Shown here: piece by piece, positions 3,255-33,582 of the stretch
How positions within the stretch are numbered: position 1 is the first letter of the stretch
How the letters are laid out: every line of letters starts with the position of its first letter
Assembly (NCBI GenBank): GCA_035649615.1
Contig: DASRJF010000409.1
Coordinates: 1-39,147 of the forward strand
DNA length: 39,147 bases
Direction of reading: 5' to 3'
Source: Planctomycetota bacterium
GTDB taxonomy: Bacteria > Planctomycetota > MHYJ01 > JACPRB01
Notes under the pieces: generated by a model
The model's database searches: none
The model's input: the letters and a program-made list of their open reading frames with translations, nothing else
What the model was told of the DNA's origin: nothing
Translations under genes and position numbers: made by a program

Positions 3255-3312
3255 TCCGGTGACCGGAGCGGACCGGCCCGCCGCGACTGGCGGGCCCGAT
3301 TGGGAGGTGGGC

Positions 3313-3558
3313 ATGGCCCCCCGCAAGCTGTACAAGATCGGCGAAGTGATGAAGTACACGAACCTGTCCCGCCAGACCATCCACAACTACACCATGATGG
3401 GCCTCATCCGCGAGGCGGACTGGACCGAGTCGGGCCACCGCCTCTACGCCGAAGAGGTCTTCGACCGCATCCGCAAGATCGAGATGCTCAAGCGGCACCG
3501 GCCCCTCCGGGAAGTGATGGAGATCCTGGGCAAAGAGGACGCCGTCACCAAGTCCTGA
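3313..3558 (+). CDS. MerR-family helix-turn-helix transcriptional regulator (short, 81 aa)
   Basis: GGGAGG RBS at 3302-3307, ATG at 3313. N-terminal MerR-type HTH YKIGEVMKYTNLSRQTIHNYTMMGLI followed by GHRLYAEEVFDRIRKIEMLK. Confidence 0.8.
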   Translation: MAPRKLYKIGEVMKYTNLSRQTIHNYTMMGLIREADWTESGHRLYAEEVFDRIRKIEMLKRHRPLREVMEILGKEDAVTKS

Positions 3559-3561
3559 CCC

Positions 3562-3733
3562 GGAAGCTGGAAGCGGGAAGTTGGAAGCGGGAATCCGGAT
3601 TCCTTCAACCCGCCGTGACCGTCATTCCAAGTTTGAGGTTCCCCATTCCCCATTCCACATTCCTCATTCCCCATTCCCATTCCACATTCCGGATTCCGCA
3701 TTCCATTCCACATTCCATCTTCCACCTTCCTTT
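3562..3733. repeat. Heptamer-periodic repeat block: GGAAGNN x5 array, conserved core, then CCNCATT/CATTCC array
   Basis: ggaagct ggaagcg ggaagtt ggaagcg ggaatcc (3562-3598). Core ccggattccttcaacccgcc. Then ccccatt ccccatt ccacatt cctcatt ccccatt ... ccggatt ccgcatt ... ccatctt ccacctt (3641-3733). The distal part is an imperfect complement of the GGAAG array. Confidence 0.9.
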
Positions 3734-23012: not shown

Positions 23013-23051
23013 AAACAAAAAGAGCCGCGCCTGATCCATCAAGCGCGGCTC
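23013..23051 (-). terminator. Intrinsic-terminator-like hairpin (minus strand) in the left island junction
   Basis: gagccgcgc (23022-23030) / gcgcggctc (23043-23051): a perfect 9-bp stem with a 12-nt loop. On the minus strand it is followed by TTTTTGTTT (complement of 23013-23021). Confidence 0.45.
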
Positions 23052-23589: not shown

Positions 23590-24651
23590 TTAGTCCTCTT
23601 CCCTGCGAAGGACTCGTTCTGCCATCGCAGCGAGCCGCTCTCCATTGCCAGTGGCCTTCATGCGCGCCGCATAATCTCCAATTGCTTTTCGCATCTGAAT
23701 AGAGTTATTCGAGGATCGCAATAGCGCCCGAAGCGCCGCGCCACCAGCAAACTCATCCTCTGCCCTAAGCTTTGACAGTAGCTCAATAATCACCCCTTCT
23801 CCACCCCCGCTGGGGTCCTTCAAGATGAGACGTACGATAAACTCAACAAAGACATTGTCGTCCCGTAGCAAGTACTGTACCAAGAGTGTGTATTGGGTTC
23901 GAATCGGCTCAAACGGACCATTTCCGTTGGAGGTAAGTTTTTCAAGAAGCGTGTAGATGATGGGTGAATAGTATCTCGGGCCTGTCGGCCCGAGGAGAAA
24001 ACTGAGCAGCTCCTTCATGTCCAGGTCACTTGGCGGTGGTGTCAGAGTCCGGCAAGGGCACTTGACGGTGTGCGAAACGCGAAATCCAACTCCATATGGC
24101 AGCACTTCATCCGCGCGGCGACTTGGATACTCTATGCGCAGGTGCAAATCTCCCAGGCTTGCGATTGCCCCTTGCCTCACCCACTCGTGTTGGTCAGATT
24201 TGACTATCGAGAGAAGCAGATCTATGGAGGCGCGATGGAAACTGGCACACTCGCTGCCCCACACAGGTATGACTGTCCGTACATGGACCACCTTGTATAC
24301 AAGTTCCTGTAGACTCTCTACGGGTCTTCGCACCACTTCCAAGGTGAATTCACTTGGTACCCTCGATCCCATCAAGCAAGAGGTCTTATAATCCTCGTAT
24401 GCCGCCTTTGCGACGGCTTCGAGTTGTGGAAAGAAAGTGGTGGACCGGAATTCGCTTTCCGGAATCTTTGTGATTGATTCTACATCTAGCCTTGAGGGCT
24501 GGGAAGGCTGAGTGGCAGCTGCACCGGCCCTAATTCCTTGCGAGGGATCGCCGTATACAGGGGTCGGGCGGCGGCATGCAGGCAATACAAGTACGAACAG
24601 AGTGAGGCCAATCCTAGACACGGTCAACGCGGACTTCCTAAATACTATCAT
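23590..24651 (-). CDS. Island gene I: probable lipoprotein with helical (ARM/HEAT-like) repeats
   Basis: The ATG at 24651 gives MIVFRKSALTVSRIGLTLFVLVLPAC (lipobox-like LPAC). The C-terminal two thirds are helix-rich (LLSFLLGPTGPRYYSPIIYTLLEKL, LLVQYLLRDDNVFVEFIVRLIL, IIELLSKLRAEDEFAGGAALRALLRS). Confidence 0.6.
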   Translation of the reverse strand: MIVFRKSALTVSRIGLTLFVLVLPACRRPTPVYGDPSQGIRAGAAATQPSQPSRLDVESITKIPESEFRSTTFFPQLEAVAKAAYEDYKTSCLMGSRVPSEFTLEVVRRPVESLQELVYKVVHVRTVIPVWGSECASFHRASIDLLLSIVKSDQHEWVRQGAIASLGDLHLRIEYPSRRADEVLPYGVGFRVSHTVKCPCRTLTPPPSDLDMKELLSFLLGPTGPRYYSPIIYTLLEKLTSNGNGPFEPIRTQYTLLVQYLLRDDNVFVEFIVRLILKDPSGGGEGVIIELLSKLRAEDEFAGGAALRALLRSSNNSIQMRKAIGDYAARMKATGNGERLAAMAERVLRREED

Positions 24652-24696
24652 GATAGTGGCCGAAACGTGCGCACATGTAGCCAATATTCGGATTGA

Positions 24697-25884
24697 TCAA
24701 TAGAGATCCTCTGGGGTGCGGATTTGCGCCTTGAAATCTTCTTTAATGGCCATACCCGGCATTGGCCCAATGGGTGGTACGTCTATTGAGTGAAAGACCT
24801 CCCATGTATCGTTACAATCTTCATTATCTAGAGCAGTGAGAGTCACGCGTACAGCCAACGTGATCTTCCCTCCAAATATCACGGCGAAATCGGTTCTGTC
24901 TGATTTGCGATTGACCTCTTCGCCCTTGTCTTCTCTTGCCTTCCTGTTGCGACTCAGCGCCGTTAGGCCGTCCTTGTGCCAATCGTCTGTGGAGGTCATG
25001 TCTGAAATGGCACGCTTCAGCCCTTTGCCCCAGGTTCCTTGCCAAAGACACTTGATATCCACGCTTTCCCATGTGGTGTCTTCGCTAATCAACGCATTGA
25101 ATTTGACGTATTCGTATTCCCACGTCCAACCTCTTGGGTGCTTATCGGTTTTCTGCTGCCAGCTGTTCATGTAGACGCCTAGCAGATATAGGGACACGTC
25201 TGCTTTCCAGCCTTTTACAAATAGGTACTTTGCAAAATAGTTCGCCTCTATGTCTACATGTCCAGTTATCCTTTGATTATCTCTCTTGTCATAGTATGTT
25301 CCAAAATCTGAGAGTCTGAGTTTGGTATGTATTCGGCTGATCTTGAGAGCGCAATTACAGGTCGTAGTATCTCCGCCGAAATACTGAGGGCTTGGAGGTG
25401 CCAATTGTAGATGTGTAACCGGATGAGATAGGGCCGAGAGGTCAACAGCGAACGTGCTTAGTAATCGAGGCTGATGCTGACTTCCAGTCTGCAAGGGAGC
25501 ATGTGGCGGCGCTGGGGCGGGCAGCTGGGGTGGGACGGTTGCCGGCATCCCCAGACCTTTAAAGGAAGCGGGAGGAACAATGAGGGGCGATTCTGATGAC
25601 GGTCTGCTAACTGCTTGATTGACAATGGGGATGTGATGCGGCAGCATCGGCAATTCGTTGTCGTAGGAATGCTGAATGAACTTCGTGTAGTCATCTGTCG
25701 GCGGCGTTGGAGTTGCATCCATTTTCAGAGGGGGTTCCTCCTCATACCCTTGAGGCAGAGCGAACTGAGATGGCGGAGGAGTTGGATTACTCCCGGGAAG
25801 TTGTTGGTTTGCCGCTTGCTGTTCTACCTGATACTGAGCGAGCCGTCTTGCGTACTCCTCAGCTTCGCTTCGTGAGATTGCCAT
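24697..25884 (-). CDS. Island gene H: modular protein (Pro/Gln-rich N-terminal region, internal VDLSAL motif, beta-rich Trp-rich C-terminal domain)
   Basis: RBS aagggtgg, then ATG at 25884. 395 aa. Residues 1-140 are Pro/Gln-rich. FAVDLSALSHPVTHL at aa 145-159 (DNA about 25402-25452). CxC (TTCNCAL). The C-terminal domain contains WTWEYEY, CLWQGTWGKG. Confidence 0.65.
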   Translation of the reverse strand: MAISRSEAEEYARRLAQYQVEQQAANQQLPGSNPTPPPSQFALPQGYEEEPPLKMDATPTPPTDDYTKFIQHSYDNELPMLPHHIPIVNQAVSRPSSESPLIVPPASFKGLGMPATVPPQLPAPAPPHAPLQTGSQHQPRLLSTFAVDLSALSHPVTHLQLAPPSPQYFGGDTTTCNCALKISRIHTKLRLSDFGTYYDKRDNQRITGHVDIEANYFAKYLFVKGWKADVSLYLLGVYMNSWQQKTDKHPRGWTWEYEYVKFNALISEDTTWESVDIKCLWQGTWGKGLKRAISDMTSTDDWHKDGLTALSRNRKAREDKGEEVNRKSDRTDFAVIFGGKITLAVRVTLTALDNEDCNDTWEVFHSIDVPPIGPMPGMAIKEDFKAQIRTPEDLY

Positions 25885-26036: not shown

Positions 26037-27458
26037 CTATTTCTTCTTAGGATTGCAAATCACATGCATTTCCAGCTGTGCACCCAGCGACGCTTGATCA
26101 CCTGTGGCCGTTGCTAGTATTCGTAGCACCCACTTGCGACCTGAAACAGTTGGCGTGCTTTCAGGGTGCTGCTTCCTGTATTCTGCAAATCTGTCTTTGA
26201 ATTCCTTTGAACCGAACGACTCTGCTTCTGTCAATTCGAATTTGCGTTCGAATGTTGCACCTCCTGCGGCGTCGGTCGTTATCACTGCATCCTGGGATTT
26301 CATGCCAACAGATACCCATACGTCTGAGGCAGAGTGGCCACCGAACTTATAGGCCTGATAAAGGGCCCCCGTGCTACCCACTGCGATTCTGGTTGATGGG
26401 GGACCATTCTTAATGGAGGCCGTGAATGACACCCAGTAGGGGCCACCCTTTGCAAAAGTCTGGCACTTGACATTTGTGATGTCTAATTCCATCTGTGTGC
26501 CGGTGACTTTTCCGAAGTTATCTGTTAGTACGGCATAAGCTGTCCTAGTGCACGCACACTTTGTCCTGCCTGTCTTGTCGATGATATTCCCTTTTGCTGT
26601 GATGATGATGCCATACGTTTTCGCACCCTTCTTTACTTCAGGTATTCCCTTATCAATGTCATCCAGGGTGAAGTCAGTTGAGAATGACAACTCCGCTTTG
26701 CTTTCCTCCGATGTCTGTCCGTCGCAATGCAATACCTTAGCTGAGAGCTGTCGTTCGCCGGCGACAACAACAAATGGATCGCCCCAAGGAAATACCATCG
26801 TCGTCTTACAGTTGGGGTGTTTATTCTCTATGTGCACTTTGAACTTGAGGGTCTTCTTTTCTCCGCCTTCAACCTTTGGGTCAGTTATTCTAATAGAAAA
26901 GGTGCACGCAGGAACATCTACATCATCATCCTGCTTCCAAGGAATAGAATAGGAGCCGGATAAGAACGAAGGACCAAGAATCACAACTTCCGGCAATCCG
27001 CCGTTTCCGGCCATGGAGGTTCCAGAGAAATCAATGAGAAAGTCACTACAGTAGATTGGTTTCCACCCCGTGTCAGTAATCTGAGTCGCCCCAGGCACGA
27101 GTGGATCAACTGAAGGGGGCTGGAGTGGCCGAACTGGGGGGTAGCTAGGGGCAGAGTACCCAACTTGCAAAGGCTCTACGATTTTCTGGAAAAGCGAAGA
27201 TGGCGTATTTTGAAACTGTTGGCTATGGCTTTGTGATCTTGGCAAGGGGCTGGGGGGAGAATACGGAGCGGGTCCCGCGTACGCATTCATTGGAGTATCT
27301 GTCAACGCAATCGATGCATGAATTGCTGTTTCAGAATCGATGAAAGGCGAGGAGGGAGGCGGCTGATGACCGATGGCTGCCGGGTCACCTGGAGTATACT
27401 CCATGTTCGGTGGCAAATGGCTCGCATTGTTTCGACGCTCAGCATCCTCGGTTTCCAT
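26037..27458 (-). CDS. Island gene G: modular protein (Pro-rich N-terminal region, beta-rich C-terminal domains), architecture parallel to gene H
   Basis: RBS AGGA 5 nt before the ATG at 27458 (the track ORF extends to 27500). Pro/Ser-rich first about 130 aa. FLIDFSGTS...VVILG segment. CxC (KCACTR). Long beta-rich remainder. No family recognised. Confidence 0.6.
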   Translation of the reverse strand: METEDAERRNNASHLPPNMEYTPGDPAAIGHQPPPSSPFIDSETAIHASIALTDTPMNAYAGPAPYSPPSPLPRSQSHSQQFQNTPSSLFQKIVEPLQVGYSAPSYPPVRPLQPPSVDPLVPGATQITDTGWKPIYCSDFLIDFSGTSMAGNGGLPEVVILGPSFLSGSYSIPWKQDDDVDVPACTFSIRITDPKVEGGEKKTLKFKVHIENKHPNCKTTMVFPWGDPFVVVAGERQLSAKVLHCDGQTSEESKAELSFSTDFTLDDIDKGIPEVKKGAKTYGIIITAKGNIIDKTGRTKCACTRTAYAVLTDNFGKVTGTQMELDITNVKCQTFAKGGPYWVSFTASIKNGPPSTRIAVGSTGALYQAYKFGGHSASDVWVSVGMKSQDAVITTDAAGGATFERKFELTEAESFGSKEFKDRFAEYRKQHPESTPTVSGRKWVLRILATATGDQASLGAQLEMHVICNPKKK

Positions 27459-27594
27459 TAGTGTCCTTAGCAATAAGATCTTTCTCATGCACAGAATCAA
27501 CCATGACTAGCGCTGTTTGGCACAATGCCAGTCTCTTCTCAATTAATAACTAGACACAGGGACCGCACTTTGGGGTCATATTCCGGTAGCATAG

Positions 27595-29055
27595 TCAATG
27601 GTCGCTACCGAAGCGCCACGCCTCGATTAGCTTGTCTGCCATGCATCGCACCGTCTCATCGCCTGAGTGCCTTAGTCTCATCACCTGCGGCTTTGCCTCC
27701 CGGGCGTCTAGACGAACAATTGCGCGGAGCAGAGCACGTTGAGCTTCTTTGTGTTTATTGATTACCGCCCAGTTGATAGCTTTCCGAAGTTCTAGGACTA
27801 AGTCAATTTCAGACTCATAGTCGATTTCATTGGCGCCAGCCTCGACCAGCGATGGATCTGCTGACCCTAGCGCCATGATAATCCATGTGCGCCTCAAACA
27901 TACGGGGAAACCCGCAATCGTCAGCCCATCGTTCTCTTCATGCTTTGGAGTGTCAAATAAGGCGATCACTCCAGCGGTATCAGTGCTACTCTTCTGCCAA
28001 GTGAGTAAAAGGCCGGATCCATCAGGAATCCAAGTGAGTTCCTGGCACATCGCAAAGCCGCGGGCCGGAACTATGTGCTCAATTCCAGAATACAAATGAC
28101 GGATGCGAATTGTGGTGAATTCTGGCAGGAGCTCATCACTCTTGCGTGGAGTATTAAGAAAGGCCACTCGCTCGCCGCTTGGATCTATCGCGGGCGCCCA
28201 TTTCAAGTCCCTGTCAGAGGTGAGCCTCGTCACCATGGTGCCGTAAGGATTGGTCACGTATACGTCAGTGTAAGCAAGTCCCGATCTGCCAATGAAAGTG
28301 AAAAGACGGCTACTGGCATCCCACGCACTCGCAAGAATCGCGTGCGGCGTAGAATCACATGGACCTACGGATTTGTGAGTTGGGGAACCGAAGGCGAGGA
28401 ACGAATGAGTAGCCGTATCAACATTCACGAGACATACGCGCGATACCGGGCAATCTCCGGCACGTTCAAAGAGCCCTTCGATTGCCAGGTGCTTCCCATC
28501 AGGGCTCCACGACACACGTGGCCTCTCCTTGGAACTTAAGACGTGATGAAGCCTAAGTGGAGTTGGCGACCCGTTGCCACGATTCATGAACACCGTCCCG
28601 TCAATGACCGATATGCAGTCTGTATTCGGATCAATGCCTGTAATGTAGCCGAGCCCCTTCTCTTTCTGTAAATCCGCGGAGCCACGCATAGCGATGCGGC
28701 TGTTAATGCTCGCGAGCCAACATGTAGTGTCAGCGCCGACGCTTTTCGAATGTGCCCGATAGTTCCGTCGAAACTCTTCAATCTGCCGACGCAAATCAGG
28801 AGCGTATTTACTAGCTGTCGATGGTGTCAACACTGTTTCAAGATCGATCATCACCGCTTGTAGTGGTCTCTCTCGTTCACACAGAATGGAAAGTCGTGTG
28901 TTGGGACCATCGGCAGAGTTTCCCGTTGTAGGTGCCGTAGAATCCCGGTGATGTAATAGAGCCTCGCCTTGCTCATGTGCCCTGTTAAGCTCAAATGAAT
29001 GCAGTCGTTCTACTAATACTAGCAGCGTCAATAGTAGTATGAAGTGCTTCAACAT
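27595..29055 (-). CDS. Island gene F: secreted TolB-like beta-propeller protein with a C-terminal helical domain
   Basis: The ATG at 29055 gives the signal peptide MLKHFILLLTLLVLV. PD40/TolB-type blades (VSWSPDGKHLAIEG, WAPAIDPSGERVAFLN, LTWIPDGSGLLLTW). C-terminal helices (LVLELRKAINWAVINKHKEAQRALLRAIVRLD). Confidence 0.65.
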   Translation of the reverse strand: MLKHFILLLTLLVLVERLHSFELNRAHEQGEALLHHRDSTAPTTGNSADGPNTRLSILCERERPLQAVMIDLETVLTPSTASKYAPDLRRQIEEFRRNYRAHSKSVGADTTCWLASINSRIAMRGSADLQKEKGLGYITGIDPNTDCISVIDGTVFMNRGNGSPTPLRLHHVLSSKERPRVSWSPDGKHLAIEGLFERAGDCPVSRVCLVNVDTATHSFLAFGSPTHKSVGPCDSTPHAILASAWDASSRLFTFIGRSGLAYTDVYVTNPYGTMVTRLTSDRDLKWAPAIDPSGERVAFLNTPRKSDELLPEFTTIRIRHLYSGIEHIVPARGFAMCQELTWIPDGSGLLLTWQKSSTDTAGVIALFDTPKHEENDGLTIAGFPVCLRRTWIIMALGSADPSLVEAGANEIDYESEIDLVLELRKAINWAVINKHKEAQRALLRAIVRLDAREAKPQVMRLRHSGDETVRCMADKLIEAWRFGSDH

Positions 29056-29145
29056 GTGCTTTTTGCCATCACTAGCCGTTATGACACTCAGAGGGCAATG
29101 AGATCCCAACGCGCATTTCACCATGCACTTCGCGCGGCACATGCC

Positions 29146-30253: not shown

Positions 30254-30505
30254 CTAAAGCCTCGAAAGCCCTTCACGGATGCAGGAGGTCAGATTCTCCG
30301 TTCCCAAGAGCACCGGTGTTGCATCCAGATTCGCTGGGGATCGTAGGGCGCTCATGTCCACCGTGGCTCCCTGGAGGAGAAACGACGTTCCGCTCATGCC
30401 GGGCTGCATGCCGAGACCACCGTTTTGGAGGCCGAGGCTATTTAATGCGAAGGGGTTGCCGTTCGTCATTTCCGTTCCATTGCAGCCGCATCCGTTCGGG
30501 CCCAT
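30254..30505 (-). CDS. Island gene D: small Gly/Asn-rich protein consisting mostly of the SALR-PANL module
   Basis: Strong RBS AAGGAGG 6 nt before the ATG at 30505. 83 aa. C-terminus GTSFLLQGATVDMSALRSPANLDATPVLLGTENLTSCIREGLSRL aligns with the C-terminus of gene E. Confidence 0.6.
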   Translation of the reverse strand: MGPNGCGCNGTEMTNGNPFALNSLGLQNGGLGMQPGMSGTSFLLQGATVDMSALRSPANLDATPVLLGTENLTSCIREGLSRL

Positions 30506-30520: not shown

Positions 30521-30853
30521 CTAGACTCCCGCAAGAAGGTCCAGAAGCTCCTGCTTTTCCTTGGGAGTCAGCACCTTCTTCTGCCGCCGTTTTTCCCTCA
30601 GTGCCGACAGCCGCAGGGCACGACTCTCCTGGATCGACTTTTGCTTCGTTCGTTGCTTGGCCGCGGCTTCAAGCTTCGCTCTGGGCTTGGGTCCAGGCTC
30701 CACCAAAGCCCGCTCAAGCACTTGGCCGGCGCCGTCGACCGCCAAGAACCAGACCGAGCCTTCCTCGTCCTCCTCGCGGAAGTAGGTTGCGCCCACGCGG
30801 GAGCTGACCACCGGGGCCGGCCCTTTCCAGGCGGTCCTCTTCACTTTGATCAT
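30521..30853 (-). CDS. Island gene C: small protein with a beta-rich N-terminal half and a highly basic helical C-terminal half
   Basis: The ATG at 30853 is 1 nt after the gene B stop. 110 aa. C-terminal KPRAKLEAAAKQRTKQKSIQESRALRLSALREKRRQKKVLTPKEKQELL. Confidence 0.55.
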   Translation of the reverse strand: MIKVKRTAWKGPAPVVSSRVGATYFREEDEEGSVWFLAVDGAGQVLERALVEPGPKPRAKLEAAAKQRTKQKSIQESRALRLSALREKRRQKKVLTPKEKQELLDLLAGV

Positions 30854-30854
30854 T

Positions 30855-32162
30855 CTAAACCCTGGCCATCCGATAGAGCGACAATTCCCCCGTGAATCCG
30901 AGGGGGCTGTTGGTCAGAACGTCGATTTGGGTGATGTTCGCCCCCGCGTTGTTCCAGAGCCCAGCATAGGAGGAAAGCTGGGCCACGACGCCTCCCAAGT
31001 CCTGAACTTCGTTGCTGAATACGAATCGAAGGAGGCCAGTTTTCGCCACCATGTGGGCCACGAACCAAGATTCCAGGAGGTTGACTTGGGGTTCCGCAAC
31101 CCTGAGATCTCCGAATACGGCTCCTGCCAAGACAACCCCGGTCGCCACAATCTTCTGGGTGGAGTGAATTCCAAGCGGGGGCAATCCGTTGGGCTGTAGC
31201 GTGATCACGGCCGGGGCGATTGGATCGAGGTTCTTCACCCGGCCGGTCAGGACGTACTGCTCGTCCGCGTCGCCATTGAGCCCGAAGAAGGTCACCAGGA
31301 TGATGGGCGCCACGATCCGCTTCGTCTCGATGAGCTGAAGCCGGTTGAAGTCCAGAGCAAGGGGAGAAGGAACCTGGTAGTCGTTCAGCGTCTGCTCGAG
31401 ATAGACGAGCGCCTCGTCCCACCAGCATGTAACCAGGATAGACGCGTCCACCTCGATGCGCCACGTCAGACTTGTGATGGGGGGCGGAATTATCCCCGAG
31501 ACGGACAGGGTTTCGAAGTTCCCGCTGCCAGTGTGCGGGCTCGACACGAACACGGGAACGCCGTTGGCCGCAACGACCAGCGTCACAGCGCCCGGCCTTG
31601 CGGTTTTTACCTTGCACGAGAACGTCAGATTCCTGCCTGCGAACTCCGCGCAATTCGGAATGACGTCTTGATCAATCTGGACGACCCCCGTGGCCGGAAC
31701 GGTCACGTCGACCTTCATGGAATAGAGGCCGCTTACCACGTCTGGAGGATTCGTTTCTCGAGAAACCGTGTAGCCAGGAGCGGCCAGGTCGCGTGCTATC
31801 CAGCCCTTTGTCAGCGGCGTTCCGCTTGGAGGATTTGTGAAAGTAGTCGCCTCCGTCCAGACTTCGCAGCCGGGGTTGATCACATAGTTGACCTGGTCCG
31901 TGCTGGCAGGAGGAGGCGGCGGCTGCACTGATCCGCCGCCGCCCGCGTACGCGGGAAGGTCAATGCACTGTGTCAGGAACGGCTGCTGCGGCGGTGCCGC
32001 TGGGGGCTTCAACGGAAGCTGATCCGTCAACGTACGAAGCGGCGGGGTCAAAAGTGGAAGCGGCTCCAATGCCGAGAGCAGGCCTGCTTGCAGCAGGGTA
32101 AACGCCTGCCCCCGAATTGCCTCGTCGGGAGTCTTGGAGATCTTGGTCGTCACAAGGTTCAT
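30855..32162 (-). CDS. Island gene B: jelly-roll/carbohydrate-binding-module-like structural protein (fibre/decoration-like)
   Basis: The ATG at 32162 is 2 nt after the gene A stop. 435 aa. Pro-rich linker (aa 40-90). The central segment NYVINPGCEVWTEAT...PLTKGW...NLTFSCKVKT...GNFETLSVSG...WWDEALVY resembles CBM4/9- or galactose-binding-like domains. A second beta-rich C-terminal domain follows. Confidence 0.5.
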   Translation of the reverse strand: MNLVTTKISKTPDEAIRGQAFTLLQAGLLSALEPLPLLTPPLRTLTDQLPLKPPAAPPQQPFLTQCIDLPAYAGGGGSVQPPPPPASTDQVNYVINPGCEVWTEATTFTNPPSGTPLTKGWIARDLAAPGYTVSRETNPPDVVSGLYSMKVDVTVPATGVVQIDQDVIPNCAEFAGRNLTFSCKVKTARPGAVTLVVAANGVPVFVSSPHTGSGNFETLSVSGIIPPPITSLTWRIEVDASILVTCWWDEALVYLEQTLNDYQVPSPLALDFNRLQLIETKRIVAPIILVTFFGLNGDADEQYVLTGRVKNLDPIAPAVITLQPNGLPPLGIHSTQKIVATGVVLAGAVFGDLRVAEPQVNLLESWFVAHMVAKTGLLRFVFSNEVQDLGGVVAQLSSYAGLWNNAGANITQIDVLTNSPLGFTGELSLYRMARV

Positions 32163-32164
32163 TC

Positions 32165-33130
32165 CTAGGGTGTCACTGAGCTATTCGTTCTGATGAGCAT
32201 CTGGGCCGCGGCCACTTCGGATTCCAGGACCAGGCTCACGTTCATGAAAATCCGGTACGTGGTGTTGGCGGTTGCGGCTCCGAGAACTTCCTTCACGCGG
32301 ACGATCTTGCTCCCCCAAACCGCGGGCGTGATGCCGTAGAGTCCGCCCCGGCCCAGGACAAGGGCGTAGATTCCGATGCCGTTGCCTTGGCCCCCAATCG
32401 TGTCCGTAGTGGAAATGTTGTCGTCAATGAGGATGGGGATTCCATCGTAGGTTGGAGTCAGCCTCTGCTTCATGCCTCCATTACAATCAGGCACATTCAT
32501 TAGGGCGTAGTGAGGCCTCAATCCCTTGTCATAGTGAGCCTTCAAGATGTTCTTGTAACCCAGCGTGTGAGTGACCAGGACGTGAGGCCTGCCGCTATTC
32601 GCCTTGATCTGTCCCACCAAGCGGGCAAGGTCATCCAGAACAAGCAGAAATCCCCCTACGTCCTTTGGCAGGATCTTTTGGGCTGCAGGCAAGAGTGCTA
32701 CAATGCCGTTGAACTGCTCAAAGTCTGGTCCTGCTGAGACGCCCGCATATAGCTTGGCGCAAAACTCATAAAGGAATCGCCGGATCGCCGTCTCGAGCTG
32801 GACTCCGACTTGTGAATTTACGTTCGATTCGGTATTGGCTGCAAAATCCATTACGATAACGTCTTGAACGAGCTGCTTGAGCTCGAATGAAACGCTCGTG
32901 GGGATCGTTTTCCCTTCGGTCGTAGCAAAGGCACCGGTGGCCTTGTCCCAGAGCGGCGCAATGCCAAAGTCGCCCGAAGTGGCGGCCCGGTTGATTCTGA
33001 GGGAGTCGCCGTCCACAGGAAAAAACGGCAAGACTTCCAGGCTCTGAACGGGCTTTGGTGCGTTCTCGATGATGTGCGCAAGAAGCTGGTCATTGGACAA
33101 CAGAAGCGATTGAGCTTTCGTCAAGGTCAT
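32165..33130 (-). CDS. Island gene A: putative HK97-fold major-capsid/encapsulin-like shell protein
   Basis: AGGAG RBS (complement of 33139-33143) 8 nt before the ATG at 33130. 321 aa. The order of elements recalls HK97-type capsid proteins: MTLTKAQSLLLSNDQLLAHIIEN, VSFELKQLVQDVIVMDFAANTESN, long helix QVGVQLETAIRRFLYEFCAKLYAG, RPHVLVTHTLGYKNILKA, YDGIPILIDDNIS, YRIFMNVSLVLESEVAAAQMLIR. This is pattern recognition only, no search was run. Confidence 0.5.
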   Translation of the reverse strand: MTLTKAQSLLLSNDQLLAHIIENAPKPVQSLEVLPFFPVDGDSLRINRAATSGDFGIAPLWDKATGAFATTEGKTIPTSVSFELKQLVQDVIVMDFAANTESNVNSQVGVQLETAIRRFLYEFCAKLYAGVSAGPDFEQFNGIVALLPAAQKILPKDVGGFLLVLDDLARLVGQIKANSGRPHVLVTHTLGYKNILKAHYDKGLRPHYALMNVPDCNGGMKQRLTPTYDGIPILIDDNISTTDTIGGQGNGIGIYALVLGRGGLYGITPAVWGSKIVRVKEVLGAATANTTYRIFMNVSLVLESEVAAAQMLIRTNSSVTP

Positions 33131-33478
33131 GGATTGCTCTCCTAATCGATACGAAGTTCTTTCAAGAAATGTGTTAGGTGGATCCAAGCAGTGCGATAGC
33201 GGGTGATGCGAGGTATGCGACGAAGAAATTTGCTTCGGGCTCGATGCAGAAAGTAGGGGCGCATGTCCTCACCGTAACCGCCTTCACCACGATCGGGCCC
33301 CTACTTCCCGATCGGAAGGCCGTTCAGGCGCGTTTCTCAGACTCTGAACTTCACTAACCCTATGACCCTATACGCATTGCGGTCAACAGTTCGTACAGAA
33401 AAAGCGCTCAAGAAAAATGAAAAAAATGGGGGTTGGATAGTGGAGTCCATAAGTTACGGATTTCGTAATCCGTACCGC

Positions 33479-33582
33479 CCGGGGAGGCGGATAGGACTCG
33501 AACTTGATTCATAGGAGCATCTAGAGCATATCCGGGGCCCGGGTCGGACTCGAACGTGGATTGGGGAGCTGCGTCTTTGGAG
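33479..33582 (-). repeat. Two tandem units of about 52 nt, each resembling a tRNA T-loop + 3' acceptor end (att-like remnants)
   Basis: On the minus strand, GTTCGAGTCC occurs twice, 52 nt apart (complement of 33494-33503 and 33546-33555). The first is followed by TATCCGCCTCCCCGG and the second by GACCCGGGCCCCGG. The units align at about 60% identity by eye. The 5' halves of a tRNA are absent. Confidence 0.4.

Follow-up and report, generated by a model that had tools for sequence, protein, structure and literature searches.

Shells with the HK97 fold are known in two guises, as phage capsids, which need a portal and a terminase, and as encapsulins, which load enzymes; how one is converted into the other is an open question. 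Capsid-forming phage-inducible chromosomal islands (cfPICIs) encode a portal, protease, head-tail connectors and small terminase of their own, and gene transfer agents (GTAs) are encoded by clusters of terminase, portal, capsid protein and tail genes. Encapsulins have been divided into families 1 to 4 on the basis of Pfam membership and characteristic operon (PMC8346489). Portal-less HK97 elements were proposed only recently, from metagenomes: Aguilar et al. (10.1101/2025.06.18.659913) described temperate, tail-less and portal-less 'mini' entities of the human gut, on contigs with direct terminal repeats and with capsids chosen for encapsulin Pfam domains. The present analysis concerns a gene for an HK97-fold shell protein in a 39,147-bp stretch of DNA (hereafter, the window), which is the entire contig DASRJF010000409.1 of a Planctomycetota metagenome-assembled genome (MAG; GCA_035649615.1). 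With moderate confidence, the module formed by this gene and its neighbour is read as the capsid-plus-fibre part of a rare family of portal-less mobile elements, of a satellite or tail-less type, that is maintained in the window.

The shell gene is the first of nine co-directional genes, which are separated by gaps of -1 to 193 nt:

32165..33130, minus strand: 321-aa homologue of HK97-fold major capsid proteins, lead gene of the operon (evidence: open reading frame (ORF), ribosome-binding site, PHROG 212, tblastn, Foldseek, profiles and ratio of non-synonymous to synonymous substitution rates (dN/dS))

An earlier annotation made from the DNA letters alone (the sequence-only reading) had proposed a 321-aa ORF at the head of an operon, without stating its strand, together with an AGGAG element 8 nt before its ATG and a stop codon 2 nt before the next ATG. 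All of these features were recovered on the minus strand, with the ATG at 33130-33128 and the stop codon TAG at 32167-32165. Read along the coding strand, the sequence around the start is cgattAGGAGagcaatccATG, in which AGGAG is followed by 8 nt and the ATG. Two bases, 'GA', separate the TAG from the ATG that opens the next ORF at 32162. An upstream TTG start at 33187 (340 aa), which resulted from automatic frame extension, was ruled out by alignment of homologues. The sequences of all 21 homologues start from the aligned M-P/T-L-T-K, which identifies the ATG at 33130 as the true start codon. The long 'spine-like' helix of the same reading, QVGVQLETAIRRFLYEFCAKLYAG, corresponds to residues 107-130; it appears as a long helix (H108-128) in the AlphaFold model and is the best-conserved block of the family, with SNVNSQVGVQLE invariant. 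Every one of the 22 capsid homologues (42-100% identity) is full length. Comparison with the 81-85%-identical copies yielded a dN/dS of 0.03-0.08 for the capsid gene, with saturated dS, and 12 contigs, which derive from several samples, encode an identical capsid protein at one and the same chromosomal site. Judged by this conservation, the ORF is a real gene and not a chance frame, and the low substitution ratios firmly support purifying selection on it.

A search of PHROGs assigned the protein to phrog_212, 'major head protein', with an E-value of 2.9e-14 (residues 1-296 against profile positions 4-272 of 301). A tblastn search of 50,697 phage records gave matches in 161 of them, 134 of which extended over at least 80% of the query at ~27% identity. 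The matches fell on annotated capsid genes of the Acinetobacter phages Effie/HHU4, of Pseudomonas YuA-like phages, and of Stenotrophomonas, Xanthomonas and Bordetella phages. The corresponding PHROG 212 capsids (Effie/HHU4, YuA-like Yuavirus members AN14 and M6, and the Stenotrophomonas, Xanthomonas and Bordetella siphophages) are collinear with the window protein from the N-terminal helix to the C-terminus and share with it the same length (~305-320 aa) and the lack of a delta domain, a feature that had been claimed for the window protein and was borne out. Pfam yielded no match at E<=1, also for the families PF05065, PF03864 and PF04454 that had been named beforehand as candidates, and NCBIfam gave no match above cut-off; formally, the protein is outside every family of both libraries. 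A weak but collinear signal was obtained with the NCBIfam model for epsilon15 gp7 (NF045672; E=1.8e-6, 27.7 bits against the 75 needed, residues 16-270), which is consistent with a distant relationship to the epsilon15 gp7 and BPP-1 capsids (3J40, 3J4U; GP7 PF20911).

Relatives of the capsid protein are scarce. A HMMER search over 1.84 billion representative proteins found 408 at E<=1e-3 and 30 at E<=1e-30, and the family is considered rare for this reason. Neither a single-sequence search nor a narrow family profile (A1) returned anything relevant to the capsid protein from the sequences in the Protein Data Bank (PDB), and a link to encapsulins became visible only once the profile had been broadened with distant family members. 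A family-only profile (A7) of 42 members, each of which matched the first profile at E<=1e-30, matched the family 2A encapsulins Mmp1 (E=2.7e-9), A. baumannii 2A (E=5.7e-6) and SrpI (E=1.1e-5) over almost the whole of these shell proteins, and marginally, in the C-terminal part only, the capsids of BPP-1 (0.013) and epsilon15 (0.47). A very broad profile (A6), which matched SrpI at 6e-29, was discarded as evidence because 19 of its 91 members themselves match the SrpI-like family of Pfam. That Pfam family (PF19307) was matched weakly by two of the 42 family members (best E=1.5e-4), while the window protein gave no match. Profile-to-sequence comparison with hhalign related the family to the capsid protein of phage Effie (99.6%, E=1.4e-24, 291 columns) and to Mmp1 (97.8%, E=9.8e-13, 245 columns).

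Structure comparison, which the sequence-only reading had named as a check, gave significant matches to HK97-fold capsids and encapsulins alike. All 25 Foldseek matches of the predicted capsid model to the PDB at E<=1e-3 were HK97-type capsids or encapsulins, with template-modelling (TM) scores of 0.45-0.62 for the best. The leading ones were family 2 encapsulins (Mmp1 5e-10, A. baumannii 2A 1e-9, SrpI 3e-9, and family 2B shells; range for the family 2A/2B shells, 5e-10 to 2e-7), and phage capsids ranked below them (Mycofy1 7e-6, SU10, HK97 3e-4, T5). Among 36 matches in BFVD, the top ones were phage capsid proteins (best E=1.7e-9). The earlier proposal of an HK97-fold shell thus holds, on the PHROG 212 assignment, the full-length homology to phage capsids and the entire set of significant Foldseek matches. 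Its second part, that the protein is more encapsulin-like than phage-like, stands for solved structures, the closest of which are family 2A/2B encapsulin shells by both fold and family profile, but does not stand for sequence, in which the closest relatives are phage capsid proteins (hhalign E=1e-24 for Effie vs 1e-12 for Mmp1). By homology and predicted fold the window protein is a bona fide HK97-fold shell protein, of a lineage that on sequence is nearest to real phage capsid proteins (Effie, YuA-like), with family 2A encapsulins as the next relatives. These comparisons, together with the selection data, firmly support a functional capsid gene of phage ancestry.

The capsid fold itself is ordinary, and the new part is the gene context. 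Phages Effie and AN14 have their capsid gene within the canonical order of terminase, portal, minor capsid/scaffold, capsid protein, connectors and tail, as is typical of the PHROG 212 phages, whereas none of those neighbours occurs in the window. When 11 structural and packaging proteins of Effie and AN14 were used as tblastn queries against the window and seven related loci, the capsid protein alone found a match, and for this reason the label 'orphan' that had been given to the gene is a fair one. The eight other proteins encoded in the island around the gene included no portal, terminase, protease, scaffold, connector or tail family in Pfam, PHROGs, NCBIfam or PADLOC; AlphaFold models covered the 321-aa protein and its 435-aa neighbour, and the other seven island proteins were covered by profile and sequence searches. 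The profile libraries likewise recognised no portal, terminase or tail family among 20 proteins from related loci, and no Walker A motif was present in island ORFs of at least 150 aa. Library scans thus agreed with the sequence-only reading that no separate protease or scaffold gene is detectable nearby. No cos/pac-type function was found in the window and no biosynthetic genes were found in the island. Because it has neither portal nor terminase, the locus falls outside tailed prophages, cfPICI-type satellites and GTAs; of the hallmarks of a tailed prophage, terminase, portal, protease/scaffold and tail genes, integrase and att repeats are all missing. An element without its own packaging motor cannot live as an autonomous tailed phage.

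Gene contexts were recovered for eight independent capsid homologues, and scans of genomes and metagenomes added 2 and 4 loci, respectively. The related loci, numbered with the prefix L, are:

L001: capsid 51% identical to that of the window; sigma-54 activator upstream
L003: capsid 55% identical; tandem capsid paralogue, DEAD-box helicase and Collar-domain fibre gene
L004/L005: capsid 83% identical; XRE regulator and tyrosine integrase
L006/L007: capsid 49% identical; sigma-54 activator, SLT transglycosylase and resolvase fragment
L008: capsid 53% identical; tandem capsid paralogue and DEAD-box helicase
L009 and L010: capsid 52% identical; pair of S24 and M78 peptidases on L009

A portal-less layout, with the capsid first behind a dedicated regulator and paired with a protein that carries a PDEAI motif, recurred in eight independent loci with capsid identities of 45-85%, some of which lie on 23-30 kb contigs without a terminase or portal anywhere. 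All-against-all comparison showed that only two gene families, the capsid and the PDEAI-motif protein, are present in all eight loci. In the window, this second family is represented by:

30855..32162, minus strand: universal partner of the capsid, a 435-aa fibre- or decoration-like protein (evidence: motif in all 8 loci, PHROG, AlphaFold and Foldseek)

The 435-aa protein consists of an N-terminal PDEAIxGxxFTLLxAGxL motif, a Pro-rich linker, a CBM4-like beta-sandwich (approximately residues 106-250; CBM, carbohydrate-binding module) and a beta-rich C-terminal domain. Across the loci, the motif takes the form (S/T)P(D/E)EAIxGxxFTL(L/V)xAGxL and is followed by a Pro-rich linker. The gene directly follows the capsid gene, or the capsid pair, in six loci, and lies 7 kb downstream of the capsid in L001 and 4 kb downstream in L006. 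The C-terminal part of the protein is variable: orthologues of the 435-aa form of the window were found in L001 and L006, and other sizes elsewhere (359 aa in L004, 212 aa in L008, 98-108 aa in L003 and L009). The 359-aa protein of L004 contains repeated 'GGTGQT...TTKGD...VGANDK' segments, which we take to be tail-fibre-like. A search with the 435-aa protein gave five homologues, all of them close, and a profile search with the PDEAI motif found at least four proteins, the remainder being Pro-rich sequences. The 435-aa protein matched a PHROG for tail fibres weakly (E=0.0016), and its model was matched in Foldseek by CBM4-2 carbohydrate-binding modules (E=3e-7, TMt 0.65-0.72) and also by tailspikes of phage CBA120 and Klebsiella K2-2. 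The pairing of the capsid with a motif-anchored partner is firmly established as obligatory, and in the window this partner is probably fibre- or decoration-like, with a predicted glycan-binding CBM4-like domain. Capsids of epsilon15 and BPP-1 carry a separate cement or staple protein, to which the universal partner of the window family forms a parallel.

Each related capsid gene has its own regulator upstream: a sigma-54 enhancer-binding protein in L001 and L006, an XRE protein in L004, and a weakly sigma-r4/helix-turn-helix (HTH)-like protein in L003, L009 and L010. Sigma-54 promoters (GG-N10-GC) were recognised in L001 (9700-10000) and L006/L007 (~3300-3590), as TGGCAT-N5-CTGCT at -61 and GGCAC-N5-CTGCT at -100. 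A textbook sigma-54 promoter is an unusual form of control for a capsid gene. Tandem TGGCCGA(A/T) repeats precede these promoters in L001 and L006, and the gene for the enhancer-binding protein is located immediately upstream. A tyrosine integrase sits at the end of L004, the DEAD-box helicases of L003 and L008 are large, and the S24 and M78 peptidase pair of L009 presumably is a typical repressor/antirepressor module. In one Planctomycetales MAG (GCA_964468745.1), two copies of the element, L009/L011 and L010, were found on different contigs. A drop in GC content like that of the window was observed in L001 and L006, and the island of L001 begins beside a tRNA-Ser(gct) gene (L001 8418-8509). 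On gene content, the related loci look like integrative, regulated mobile elements, of a temperate, satellite-type or tail-less kind.

The tandem capsid paralogues in L003 (6799-8773) and L008 (6268-8252) are 33-40% identical to the window protein, which is encoded by a single copy. They are reminiscent of the hexamer/pentamer specialisation of T4 gp23/gp24 or of the two-component shells of family 2B encapsulins. The second gene in L001/L006 was tested as a further capsid paralogue and rejected.

Comparison with the 'mini' entities showed that the window shares their core combination of an HK97 capsid, an element of less than ~11.6 kb and the absence of terminase, portal and tail genes. The likeness extends to a size of ~9-11 kb and, in relatives of the window, to regulators (sigma factors, repressors) and an integrase or helicase. 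Other traits of the 'mini' entities (integrase, replication gene, terminal repeats, encapsulin Pfam domain) were not found in the window. The window family differs from the 'mini' entities in its source, soil Planctomycetota, in its integration into the chromosome, in the lack of any Pfam match and in its obligatory PDEAI/CBM partner.

One specific form of the preferred reading is a capsid-forming satellite that makes its own shell and fibre and obtains portal, terminase and tail from an unknown helper phage. The missing packaging motor and a size of ~10-11 kb, within the range of satellites, agree with such a life style, as do the integrase, SOS-type repressor module and late-gene regulators of relatives and the presence of two copies in one Planctomycetales MAG; satellite life styles have been discussed for small HK97 elements (10.1101/2025.06.18.659913). 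No helper is known, however, and neither a primase or replication gene nor a cos/pac-type function was found in the window. Moreover, cfPICIs bring their own portal and associated proteins, and in the satellite scenario a foreign portal would need to fit the window capsid. This sub-case was rated as distinctly unlikely in its own right.

The capsid operon of the window is contained in a low-GC island between ordinary host genes. GC content is 49-61% between ~23 and 34 kb and 64-75% across most of the window, giving an island of ~10.3-10.7 kb (roughly 23.0/23.4-33.6 kb). It is flanked on one side by an 8-amino-7-oxononanoate synthase-like gene and a bioA-like aminotransferase gene, and on the other side by a lipoprotein gene, a HEAT-repeat gene and gatB. 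Its horizontal acquisition is firmly indicated by the low GC content and its position between host genes. The following features mark its borders and the region upstream of the capsid gene:

23022..23051, minus strand: strong terminator-like hairpin of 13 bp with 9 G-C pairs and TTTTTGTTTC behind it, located past the last island gene
33131..33400, minus strand: capsid-gene leader and promoter, made up of a promoter-like box (TTGACC), a block of ~45 conserved nt (CCTTCCGATCGGGAAGTAGGGGCCCGATCG ... GCGCCCCTAC) and AGGAG (sequence shared between loci; predicted function)
33488..33558, minus strand: two repeats resembling tRNA 3' halves, each with GTTCGAGTCC and an acceptor-like tail (direct repeat D3, right island border)

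The tRNA T-loop-like GTTCGAGTCC has its only two matches in the window exactly at the right island border, 52 nt apart, where 0.2 were expected; the repeats may be a relic of an attachment site for tRNA-targeted integration. No intact tRNA and no Rfam family were detected in the window. In the ~250-nt leader, the conserved block and TTGACC box are common to the three closest loci: the window, L004/L005 (4130-4420) and L013 (260-553). The block permits two mutually exclusive pairings, and the predicted fold of the leader RNA was no better than that of shuffled sequence (z=0.19), for which reason the block may act as an operator for a protein rather than as an RNA element.

The island could also be an inert remnant of a conventional tailed prophage, in which a capsid gene and a tail-fibre gene outlived deletion of the other structural genes and no functional assembly takes place. 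A capsid protein of phage ancestry, a fibre-like neighbour, tRNA-like fragments at one border, and a low-GC island without integrase, att repeats or regulator would all be expected of such a remnant. Decay is harder to reconcile with nine intact, tightly spaced, co-directional ORFs and with strong purifying selection on the capsid gene. The same portal-less arrangement in eight independent loci further disfavours independent decay, and the remnant explanation was judged to be very unlikely. Under the preferred reading of a maintained capsid-plus-fibre module, the window copy most likely lost, or never had, an integrase and regulator, became fixed at one site and was kept intact.

The seven remaining genes of the operon, in order of transcription, are:

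30521..30853, minus strand: 110-aa protein, co-conserved with the 435-aa type of fibre
30254..30505, minus strand: 83-aa protein, Gly/Asn-rich and Cys/Gly-rich, with MG..CGC at the N-terminus and a 41-aa domain (B1) at the C-terminus; orthologue in L004
29146..30060, minus strand: 304-aa protein with a globular N-terminal domain, Pro-rich linker and C-terminal B1 domain; no family match
27595..29142, minus strand: 515-aa protein, hydrophobic in an N-terminal segment, for which PD40 of Pfam and TolB of NCBIfam gave weak signals of a beta-propeller, both far below cut-off
26037..27500, minus strand: 487-aa ORF (473 aa in the gene calls of L014-L021), Pro-rich at the N-terminus and then beta-rich; no match in Pfam, PHROGs, NCBIfam or PADLOC
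24697..25884, minus strand: 395-aa protein, N-terminal ~160 aa related to the syntenic 581-aa protein of L004; no family match
23590..24684, minus strand: 364-aa predicted lipoprotein with lipobox LPAC and weak HEAT-like repeats (Pfam HEAT_2 E=0.0055, below cut-off), the last island gene

Homologues of the 110-aa protein are encoded directly after the orthologous 433/432-aa partner protein in L001 and L006/L007 and are missing where the C-terminus of the fibre differs. Retention of this gene only alongside the 435-aa type of fibre is as expected of a cognate assembly factor, which is a possible role for the protein on this pattern of co-occurrence. The relationship of the 395-aa protein to the L004 581-aa protein was seen with blastp (E=1.8e-9) and tblastn (E=4.7e-6). 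PADLOC defence models gave no match among the island proteins.

Small proteins with Cys-rich starts (57-99 aa) are encoded at equivalent positions in the window (30254-30505), L004 (7556-7855), L003 (13226-13399) and L008 (11596-11844); their N-termini, for example MGPNGCGC, MGSNGCGC, MACCQNC and MGCCSDC, resemble metal-binding or acylation motifs. Predicted lipoproteins with lipobox LPAC, VNAC, LSGC or AAAC are encoded in the window (23590-24684), L004 (10617-11852), L006 (11327-11977) and L001 (16091-17236), and in L006 the lipoprotein gene directly follows that for the SLT lytic transglycosylase. A lysis, spanin-like or exclusion function could be envisaged for the lipoprotein of the cluster.

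The C-terminal 41 residues (B1) of the 83-aa and 304-aa proteins are 54% identical (E=1e-12), and orthologues of both proteins were found in L004. A B1-like segment in the 395-aa protein was not significant (E=0.82). In L001, L003, L006 and L008, a C-terminal peptide of ~40 aa (B2), 'PPWTxLDLxVDPxGS...IDGxxxVRG', unlike B1, ends eight otherwise dissimilar proteins, two or three per locus, behind Gly/Pro/acid-rich linkers. The gene regions that encode B2-bearing proteins are:

L001 12220-14988
L006 5775-8513
L003 13418-14950
L008 11874-13682

Homology between B1 and B2 was not detectable with hidden Markov models (HMMs) or hhalign, and the layout of the proteins that carry them is analogous. 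Encapsulin cargo addresses its shell by such an arrangement of domain, disordered linker and short conserved terminal peptide, and so do the scaffolds and internal proteins of phages. It is mainly because of this architecture that encapsulin-like loading stays in play.

The island might accordingly encode a domesticated, encapsulin-like nanocompartment, in which a cytoplasmic shell encloses island proteins and packages no DNA, the payloads being carried on disordered linkers and targeted by the N-terminal PDEAI motif and by C-terminal B1 (window) or B2 (relatives). Several unrelated island proteins indeed share the arrangement of domain, disordered linker and conserved terminal peptide. The best matches of the capsid among solved structures are family 2A/2B shells (Foldseek, profile, and hhalign at 97.8%), and genes for portal, terminase, protease and tail were not detected. 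Regulation in L001 and L006, by sigma-54 activator and promoter, is of a host type, and the window copy is fixed, has no integrase and is under purifying selection. As in the window, the shell genes of family 2A encapsulins (SrpI of Synechococcus, 6X8M; mycobacterial Mmp1, 8WON/8WOL; A. baumannii, 8T6R) occur without portal and terminase, and the short conserved terminal motifs on disordered linkers in neighbouring proteins of the window add to this likeness.

Family assignment, however, does not follow. The window protein matches none of PF04454, PF19307, PF05065 and PF08967, and in sequence it resembles real phage capsid proteins more closely than encapsulins. No known cargo enzyme adjoins the capsid gene, neither cysteine desulfurase, terpene cyclase nor a DyP or ferritin-like protein. 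For family 1, whose neighbouring cargo bears a C-terminal targeting peptide, no match to PF04454 (Linocin_M18) at E<=1 and no DyP, ferritin-like or other known cargo nearby were found; families 3 (PF05065, encoded within biosynthetic gene clusters) and 4 (PF08967, A-domain only) had no match either, and the window protein has a full-length HK97 fold. Family 2A differs from the window in its PF19307 domain and in its adjacent cysteine desulfurase cargo, which has a disordered N-terminal loading domain; the window partner also has an N-terminal motif and a disordered linker, but its payload is CBM-like, and relatives reside on mobile elements. The locus is outside encapsulin families 1-4 on both shell family and cargo. 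A glycan-binding CBM, tail-fibre-like segments and the Collar-domain gene of relatives belong outside a particle, and integrase, repressors, lysin and helicases in relatives also weigh against this reading; the homology of B1 and B2 is, as stated, not demonstrable. An encapsulin-like, protein-loading shell was regarded as unlikely.

A further possibility lies between the two known guises. The locus may give rise to a new kind of HK97 particle, halfway between phage capsids and family 2 encapsulins, which has no portal, loads proteins and no DNA via the terminal peptides PDEAI, B1 and B2 and exposes a glycan-binding fibre on its surface. This combination was considered quite improbable. If true, it would describe a self-contained, possibly released, adhesive or protein-carrying nanoparticle that is spread by integrative elements and, in some hosts, is under sigma-54 control.

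For a portal-less element of satellite or tail-less type, the gene set of the window suggests the following mechanism. The capsid protein would self-assemble into an icosahedral shell, on which the 435-aa protein would dock via its N-terminal amphipathic PDEAI...FTLL motif. The docked protein would display its CBM4-like glycan-binding domain on the Pro-rich tether, in the manner of a head fibre or decoration protein, and the 110-aa protein may assist the fibre. The C-terminal domain of 41 aa that the 83-aa and 304-aa proteins have in common could recruit both of them, either to serve in a scaffold-like role or to be packaged.

Several observations weigh against the interpretation as a mobile capsid-plus-fibre element. 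The island occurs at the same site, with 99.8-100% nucleotide identity, in 12 contigs, which therefore sample one population. The window has no flanking att direct repeats and no integrase or integrase remnant, and its copy of the element has no repressor or other regulator and no replication gene or primase; for these reasons, only the relatives speak for mobility. The 2.9 million viral contigs of IMG/VR contained no relative. Because phages of planctomycetes have barely been sampled, a very divergent portal or terminase could escape profile searches. Some island proteins appear to be exported, as judged from a signal anchor and a lipobox, which is no obvious fit to either a virion or a cytoplasmic shell. 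Both AlphaFold models are of low overall confidence: that of the capsid protein, built with 21 homologues, has a pLDDT (predicted local distance difference test) of 57 and a pTM (predicted TM-score) of 0.56, and that of the 435-aa protein has a pLDDT of 40 and is confident only at approximately residues 106-250. The element is known here from its genes, from which we infer shell assembly, docking by terminal motifs and life style, and the docking of these motifs to the shell is conjecture throughout.

If the locus is no more than a capsid module, the result is a modest one: a new capsid family that is invisible to Pfam and is labelled 'hypothetical' by annotation pipelines. The interesting part is the conserved core of a capsid and an anchored fibre without a packaging motor, sometimes under sigma-54 control. 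Elements of the family span a range from clearly mobile, with integrase, repressor and lysin, to chromosomally fixed. With a capsid homologous to both phage capsids and family 2A encapsulins, the window family is a compact case, from a phylum that has been little studied, in which the question of how HK97 shells change from one guise to the other can be tested.

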